Assembly: GCA_050013255.1 (NCBI GenBank) | Contig: JBEKFP010000001.1 | Span: forward strand, 416,001 to 480,000 | Direction of reading: 5' to 3' | DNA from: Candidatus Bathyarchaeia archaeon | Lineage (GTDB): Archaea; Thermoproteota; Bathyarchaeia; 40CM-2-53-6 | Length of the DNA stretch: 64,000 nt | In this document: piece by piece, positions 45,468 to 45,926 of the stretch | How positions within the stretch are numbered: the stretch's first letter is position 1 | How the letters are laid out: each line of letters starts with the position of its first letter | The notes under the pieces: generated by a model | Seen by the model: the letters and a program-made list of their open reading frames with translations, nothing else | Database searches by the model: none | Told to the model about the DNA's origin: nothing | Program-made: the position numbers and the translations under genes

Positions 45468-45926
45468 ATGTTCGAAGGGCTTCGAATCAAGCTTCGCAGG
45501 CTGCCATGGAGACTACAACGAGCTTTCACAAACGTCAGCTATTCCCTTAGAATTTTCAGGTCGCCCACTGCAAGAAGGATGAAACCCTCGACCACTGTAA
45601 TGATTGTGGCGGTGCTTGTCTTCGTCGGTTTCGTACTGGCTGGAGGAATATACGATATACTAGAACGCCCAATCTCGCTACTGCCCTCCCCTACTGGATA
45701 CTCAGTCGTCATTAAGGGAACCTTAGGGCAGCAGACACTGAACGAGAGCCTGATTGCGGCTTTCCTCTACATGCTCGGTCTGGGGGGGCTGTACATGCTT
45801 CTTCGGAGCACAAGGTTTGCTTACAGGCCACGCAACGCGTACCTCCTCCTCATACTAGGCACGCTTACGGTACTCATTGTCGTATTCTACTCGACTGCGC
45901 TCATTAATCAAAAGATCGGCGGATGA
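45468..45926 (+). CDS. OSTC/DC2 (OST3/OST6 family)-like membrane protein
   Basis: Three TM helices; [25 protein letters not shown] pattern resembles eukaryotic OSTC. Confidence 0.7.
   Translation: [152 protein letters not shown]

Follow-up and report, generated by a model that had tools for sequence, protein, structure and literature searches.

An OSTC/DC2-like membrane protein encoded near an STT3-like AglB in Bathyarchaeia: a candidate accessory subunit of an archaeal oligosaccharyltransferase

Protein N-glycosylation in archaea is commonly attributed to one protein, the oligosaccharyltransferase (OST) AglB, and helper subunits of the eukaryotic type have been discussed mostly for Asgard archaea. 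The locus considered here lies in a 64,000-nucleotide stretch of DNA (the window) from a soil Candidatus Bathyarchaeia archaeon (assembly GCA_050013255.1, contig JBEKFP010000001.1), in which a small membrane protein resembling OSTC, also known as DC2, is encoded at a short distance from aglB. It raises the question of what this protein is and whether it could be a partner of AglB in an archaeal class outside Asgard. Prokaryotic homologues of the non-catalytic OST subunits were sought and none were found by Lombard 2016 (PMC4973528). Homologues of OST3/OST6 in Asgard archaea are credited to Zaremba-Niedzwiedzka 2017 in two papers that cite it (PMC10307638; PMC8993221), and OST1 and OST3/6 have been reported to be present in TACK archaea (Carilo 2024; PMC11417166). 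A 2025 study drew on PF04756 and 966 archaeal genomes for an OST3/6-like tree, and the Panguiarchaeum paper includes an OST3/6 tree in its supplement.

A relative of the OSTC and Ost3/Ost6 membrane module

The open reading frame at 45468-45926 on the forward strand opens with ATG, runs for 152 codons and closes with TGA, while its antisense strand is riddled with stops. Against orthologues from related metagenome-assembled genomes (MAGs), at dS values ranging up to saturation, dN/dS is 0.04-0.16, and the gene is under purifying selection. A TATA-like ATATTTTA box at 45424-45431 (+), placed 37 nt upstream of the ATG in an 84-bp divergent intergenic region, is a candidate promoter. A hydropathy scan of the product delineates three transmembrane (TM) segments, at residues ~42-65 (45591-45662, +), ~93-113 (45744-45806, +) and ~122-147 (45831-45908, +), the second and third of which appear as helices 91-116 and 121-149 in an AlphaFold2 (AF2) model. 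TM1 ends in a family-invariant GG(I/V)YD motif, whose G59 does not vary across 97 sequences, and is followed by an extracellular loop (residues 66-92; 45663-45743, +) that forms a small beta-hairpin, with strands at 72-74 and 77-79 in the model, and contains the conserved Gln89, nearly invariant in the 97-sequence alignment. TM1 is preceded by a Lys/Arg-rich tail of 37 residues (residues 1-37; 45468-45578, +), predicted to be cytoplasmic and modelled with two short helices, 3-10 and 14-29, at pLDDT 75-86. The linker between TM2 and TM3 is likewise a basic loop and, by the positive-inside rule, this distribution of charge suggests an N-in, C-out topology. There is no pair of cysteines in the 152 residues, and a CxxC motif is thus absent.

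Homology to OSTC is apparent from the single sequence, with which phmmer, run against PDB sequences, matched human OSTC (6S7O_H) at E 5.6e-6 over residues 38-151 and canine OSTC (6FTG_3) at E 6e-5. OSTC, human or canine, was the only kind of solved protein found in this way, and identity to it is 24-27%. When searched with profiles, the match strengthens: a narrow profile of the 14 closest homologues, the query counted, reached OSTC at E 3e-14, and one of 97 archaeal family members reached it at E 1.3e-20 over the full length. The latter profile matched MagT1 at only E 2.4e-8, and the protein is therefore nearer to OSTC than to Ost3/6 in score, as it is in length and helix number. An exhaustive search of 1.84 billion representatives at E <= 1e-3 yielded 146 representative clusters, nearly all of proteins 110-170 aa long.

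Among Pfam families, PF04756 (OST3_OST6) aligns to residues 37-149 through its profile positions 176-288 of 294, which correspond to the C-terminal membrane part, with a score of 21.8 bits that is under the 27-bit gathering cut-off. The same family is matched at E <= 0.01 by 76 of the 97 full-length relatives, some of them above the gathering cut-off; no other Pfam family recurs among these relatives, and the protein itself has no further domain. In particular, Pfam detects no thioredoxin domain in it or in any of the longer relatives P0176, P0126, P0213, P0215, P0225, P0248 and P0052, and no archaeal fused Ost3/6 form was seen among the longer relatives examined. Lacking this domain, the protein qualifies as OSTC-like and not as a full Ost3/6 and, as the CxxC that goes with the domain is missing too, an oxidoreductase function is impossible for it. 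Thioredoxin-like ORFs of the genome (L001, L002), which match the N-terminal part of PF04756, were considered as Ost3/6 candidates and rejected as generic, because the same search finds matches in 12 of 14 unrelated control genomes.

The AF2 model, built from the family alignment with a mean pLDDT of 91.3, was compared with the PDB using Foldseek. Ranks 1-4 were taken by the OSTC chains 9N9J_J, 8B6L_J, 8PN9_H and 6S7O_H, at probability 1.00, with the best match at TM 0.85 and rmsd 1.9 Å (8PN9_H). Ranks 5-10 and 12 comprised yeast Ost3 (8AGC_H, 8AGE_H, 6EZN_C, 6C26_3), canine OSTC (6FTG_3, rank 7), MagT1 (6S7T_H) and Ost6 (7OCI_C). All ten of the best fold matches are hence OSTC, Ost3, Ost6 or MagT1 chains, and matches below rank 10 are noise, save for the one at rank 12 (6C26_3, E 0.51). 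An earlier note on this DNA, made from the letters alone, had described a 152-aa, three-TM protein related to OSTC/OST3_OST6 and devoid of the OST3/6 thioredoxin domain. ORF call and hydropathy, the single-sequence, profile and Foldseek matches, and Pfam, respectively, uphold each part of that description, and the human OSTC motifs that it had paired with the protein proved real in the HMMER alignment to 6S7O_H, the terminal MKLPG included. Homology to the OSTC/Ost3/6 membrane module is thus established by sequence, profile and fold, and the relationship of the protein to the three-helix membrane module common to OSTC/DC2 and Ost3/Ost6/MagT1 is at the level of orthologues.

AglB as predicted partner, and the gene neighbourhood

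The whole genome (2.46 Mb in 3 contigs) holds one STT3 match, and hence a sole OST catalytic subunit, the 924-aa AglB encoded at 39562-42336 on the reverse strand. It is eukaryote-like, in that human STT3A is its best solved relative (E 3.8e-73 over residues 39-634), whereas the AglB of Archaeoglobus (A. fulgidus) is matched at only E 7e-6. Its Pfam matches are STT3 (120 bits), STT3-PglB_core, Big_3_5 and PKD, and its motifs include WWDYG at residue 546, SVAEHQP in EL5 and, within residues invariant among relatives, the double sequon DNGTQNST. Such a double sequon is stated to be common to TACK and Asgard AglB and eukaryotic STT3 in a passage of PMC8993221 that cites Shrimal and Gilmore 2019. 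The two C-terminal Ig-like domains (Big_3_5 and PKD; residues ~737-924, window 39562-40128, -) are missing from the ~700-730-aa AglBs of other Thermoproteota, and the AglB ORFs of some close relatives look shorter (660 aa in L005, 630 aa in L009), by a domain difference or a frameshift.

A complex of AglB residues 1-730 (22-sequence alignment) with the OSTC-like protein (97-sequence alignment) was modelled in three runs, which gave ipSAE values of 0.76, 0.77 and 0.75, as against 0.00 for the best of three controls. In a benchmark, that mark was attained by 58 of 80 solved complexes and by 2 of 110 mismatched pairs. The runs share at least 82% of contacts, with a partner pLDDT of at least 71. 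The predicted docking surface on AglB spans residues 360-495 (40852-41259, -), that is, the end of EL5 plus TM10-TM13 as assigned by hydropathy, a face that we take to be the side of STT3 on which DC2, MagT1 or Ost3 sits in solved eukaryotic OSTs. All three helices of the OSTC-like protein contribute to the predicted interface, in which residues 42-66 are included, residues 86-89 touch AglB, and the contacts of lowest expected error are those of TM2 with residues 392-396 of AglB. The score may be a memory of solved OST-A, OST-B and yeast OST, and it therefore speaks of likeness, not of binding. The probable location of the OSTC-like protein is on the eukaryote-like AglB/STT3, whose gene is 3.1 kb distant.

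Taken with the homology, we consider it probable that the gene encodes a non-catalytic accessory membrane subunit of the archaeal oligosaccharyltransferase AglB. In this role its three TM helices would pack on TM10-TM13 of the single eukaryote-like AglB/STT3, and the protein may stabilise the enzyme on its lipid-linked-oligosaccharide and acceptor side, or tune it there.

A more specific assignment, by analogy with metazoan DC2, would make the protein a translocon adaptor that docks AglB on SecYE-beta for glycosylation during translocation. The adaptor role of DC2 in mammals is described in PMC5674889, and both sequence and fold bring the archaeal protein closer to OSTC/DC2 than to Ost3/6. It also has the length and three-helix layout of OSTC, and its conserved basic N-tail, predicted to be cytoplasmic, is a possible means of reaching a partner. 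Conservation of this tail is seen in a homologue of 72% identity, which has 23 of the 37 residues in common, but its length and sequence vary within the family, being shorter or variable in distant relatives, and the proteins of Methanosuratincola and Infirmifilum measure 116-117 aa in all, versus 152 aa here. We regard the adaptor role as rather unlikely, and the accessory subunit as the better account.

The start codon of aglB (42336) is 3131 bp upstream of the start of the OSTC-like ORF, in keeping with the 3.1 kb given in the earlier note. Even so, it is not aglB that keeps closest and most constantly to the OSTC-like gene but carS and radB, convergent with it, and a zinc-ribbon gene divergent from it. 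carS, for CDP-archaeol synthase (45940-46473, -), begins 14 bp past the stop codon of the OSTC-like gene, radB occupies 46494-47198 (-), and the zinc-ribbon gene (45210-45383, -), for 57 aa with a CxxC...CxxC pattern, is 84 bp away on the other side. In almost all of 43 Bathyarchaeia loci the OSTC-like gene converges with carS-radB, and in most it diverges from the zinc-ribbon gene; an eIF2alpha-nop10-aglB block is found 3-8 kb upstream. Among 20 loci of other Thermoproteota families, carS, radB or both usually recur next to the gene, and AglB is encoded 0.3-5 kb away in half of them (10/20), three of these being divergent pairs separated by less than 550 bp (L050, L059, L060). Linkage to aglB is thus recurrent over class-level distances, yet it falls within a housekeeping synteny block and may be inherited, not functional; hence it is supportive, not decisive.

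The presence of carS and radB beside the OSTC-like gene represents a very old gene order across the phylum. The zinc-ribbon gene, which is paired with the OSTC-like gene in most Bathyarchaeia loci and is nearby in L050, L057, L064 and L065, has weak Pfam matches of the generic zinc-ribbon kind. A 365-aa P-loop protein with a GMTDVGKST motif (window 48269-49366, +) likewise belongs to the block that is kept near radB in many loci of Thermoproteota.

The neighbourhood bears on another alternative, a membrane protein independent of AglB that would act in lipid metabolism with CDP-archaeol synthase or as a small transporter. The most constant neighbour is indeed carS, which adjoins the 3' end of the gene in almost every Bathyarchaeia locus and does so in many further lineages, Pfam terms PF04756 a 'transporter family', and a small-transporter role was once proposed for MagT1/TUSC3. 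However, carS is convergent and therefore not co-transcribed with the OSTC-like gene, homology, fold and predicted interface all indicate STT3, and the co-occurrence with an Ost1-like gene described below also weighs against such a role, which we consider improbable.

Distribution and other subunits in Thermoproteota

When 401 genomes of the phylum Thermoproteota were searched with the family profile at E <= 1e-5, the OSTC-like family was found in 227, with a single copy per genome. All sampled genomes of the class Bathyarchaeia match (E 1e-30 to 1e-49), as do many other families, and these data, together with synteny, bear out a co-occurrence and frequent linkage with STT3-like AglB across the phylum. 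Exact look-ups placed carriers beyond Bathyarchaeia in Ca. Methanosuratincola petrocarbonis, Nezhaarchaeota and an unclassified Thermoprotei MAG, and further carriers are Infirmifilum uzonense (hypothetical protein MA03_05895) and Ca. Caldarchaeum subterraneum (CSUB_C0689). The orthologue of Infirmifilum sp. NZ, WP_318536540.1, is an 'OST3/OST6 family protein' in RefSeq, and the members from Bathyarchaeia in databases are all labelled 'hypothetical protein'. Close relatives (75-93% identity) occur in peat and soil MAGs labelled Bathyarchaeia or Bathyarchaeota. The eIF2alpha-nop10-aglB...OSTC-like-carS-radB block also occurs, at 75-80% protein identity, on contigs (e.g. L010, L012, L021) from MAGs deposited under Acidiferrales, Methylomirabilota, Acidoferrum and Zixibacteria, and these bacterial-labelled contigs probably belong to Bathyarchaeia and were mis-binned.

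Six families among the 401 genomes gave no match to the profile (0/56, 0/16, 0/23, 0/12, 0/5 and 0/15). Five genomes sampled from these families all have AglB, and one genome of the family of 56 has amoA and is therefore an ammonia oxidiser. On the strength of these five, about 170 Thermoproteota genomes, an ammonia oxidiser among them, are counted as having AglB without the OSTC-like protein, and AglB therefore has no general need of the subunit. The SV-x-E motif of EL5 is kept in each of five AglBs examined from such lineages (SVAE in four, SVQE in one), and no clear correlate of the absence of the OSTC-like subunit was seen among these five.

A second relative of a non-catalytic OST subunit is encoded in the genome outside the window (G000:C1:98383-100110, +, equivalent to L068:1357-3084), namely a 575-aa ribophorin I (Ost1)-like protein that scores 70.5 bits on PF04597 versus a cut-off of 25 and that finds a single sequence match in the PDB, the 'Ribophorin 1 superfamily protein' 8WHN. 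Ribophorin_I matches occur in 52 of the 401 Thermoproteota genomes, all 52 of which also carry the OSTC-like gene, and the six families without the latter have no Ribophorin_I match either, a nesting that is not a statistical test, given that related genomes are non-independent and that the eukaryote-trained PF04597 is insensitive. DAD1, OST48 and Ost4 gave no match in the genome, small subunits being hard to detect, and Ost5 gave a sub-threshold 16.8 bits that control genomes match alike. With the OSTC-like and ribophorin I (Ost1)-like proteins added to AglB, Bathyarchaeia and many other Thermoproteota would possess a minimal multi-subunit OST.

A chance likeness of some generic small hydrophobic protein, or a non-coding ORF, would recall that spurious low-complexity matches are frequent for short TM proteins and that the PF04756 score is under its cut-off, but it has a negligible probability and is already refuted by profile E-values to 1e-20 over the full length, top fold matches all specific to the OSTC/Ost3/6 module, the dN/dS of 0.04-0.16, the 146 representative clusters and the single copy in each of 227 genomes.

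Comparison with known systems and what the family may mean

Of the known systems, human/metazoan OSTC (DC2) resembles the archaeal protein in length (149 versus 152 aa), three TM helices, a basic N-tail and the lack of a lumenal domain, and has the motifs GG-x-YD, Q-x-x-x-E and terminal K-x-x-G in common with it. OSTC is the STT3A-specific subunit of OST-A (PDB 6S7O chain H, 8PN9 chain H, 8B6L chain J, 9N9J chain J) and, in a parallel manner, the archaeal protein is predicted by the complex model to sit on TM10-13 of an STT3A-like AglB. Unlike OSTC, it belongs to an archaeal plasma membrane, its partner would be a single AglB with extra Ig-like domains, and its extracellular loop is shorter, as gaps in the phmmer alignment indicate. 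KCP2 is the other mammalian translocon adaptor, and we know of no KCP2 for the archaeal system. With yeast Ost3/Ost6 and human MagT1/TUSC3 (PF04756), the protein shares a homologous C-terminal membrane module but, in contrast to them, it is without the N-terminal thioredoxin domain and CxxC and has three TM helices, the first of four being missing. The Asgard/TACK OST3/OST6 homologues belong to the same family, the profile built on this gene recovering the Infirmifilum, Caldarchaeum, Methanosuratincola and Nezhaarchaeota proteins, from which the Bathyarchaeia member differs by a longer N-tail. We found in the literature no biochemical characterisation of any archaeal OSTC-like member, and no discussion of the archaeal family being closer to OSTC/DC2, near-universal in Bathyarchaeia or nested with the Ost1-like gene.

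The most far-reaching picture, which we put forward tentatively and hold to be unlikely, is that of a three-subunit OST, made up of STT3-like AglB and the Ost1-like and OSTC-like proteins, docked on SecYE-beta for co-translocational N-glycosylation in Bathyarchaeia and many Thermoproteota. Were this true, the core of the eukaryotic OST-A/translocon assembly would predate the Asgard-eukaryote lineage, and the thioredoxin-less OSTC form would be ancestral to Ost3/6. Since publications have already placed the family in TACK archaea, the present findings refine a known picture, and their main gain is the annotation of the 'hypothetical' members in Bathyarchaeia. As a probable accessory subunit of AglB, the OSTC-like protein offers a testable candidate for a multi-subunit archaeal OST, for which cultured hosts exist (Infirmifilum), and the family bears on the timing of eukaryotic OST architecture.
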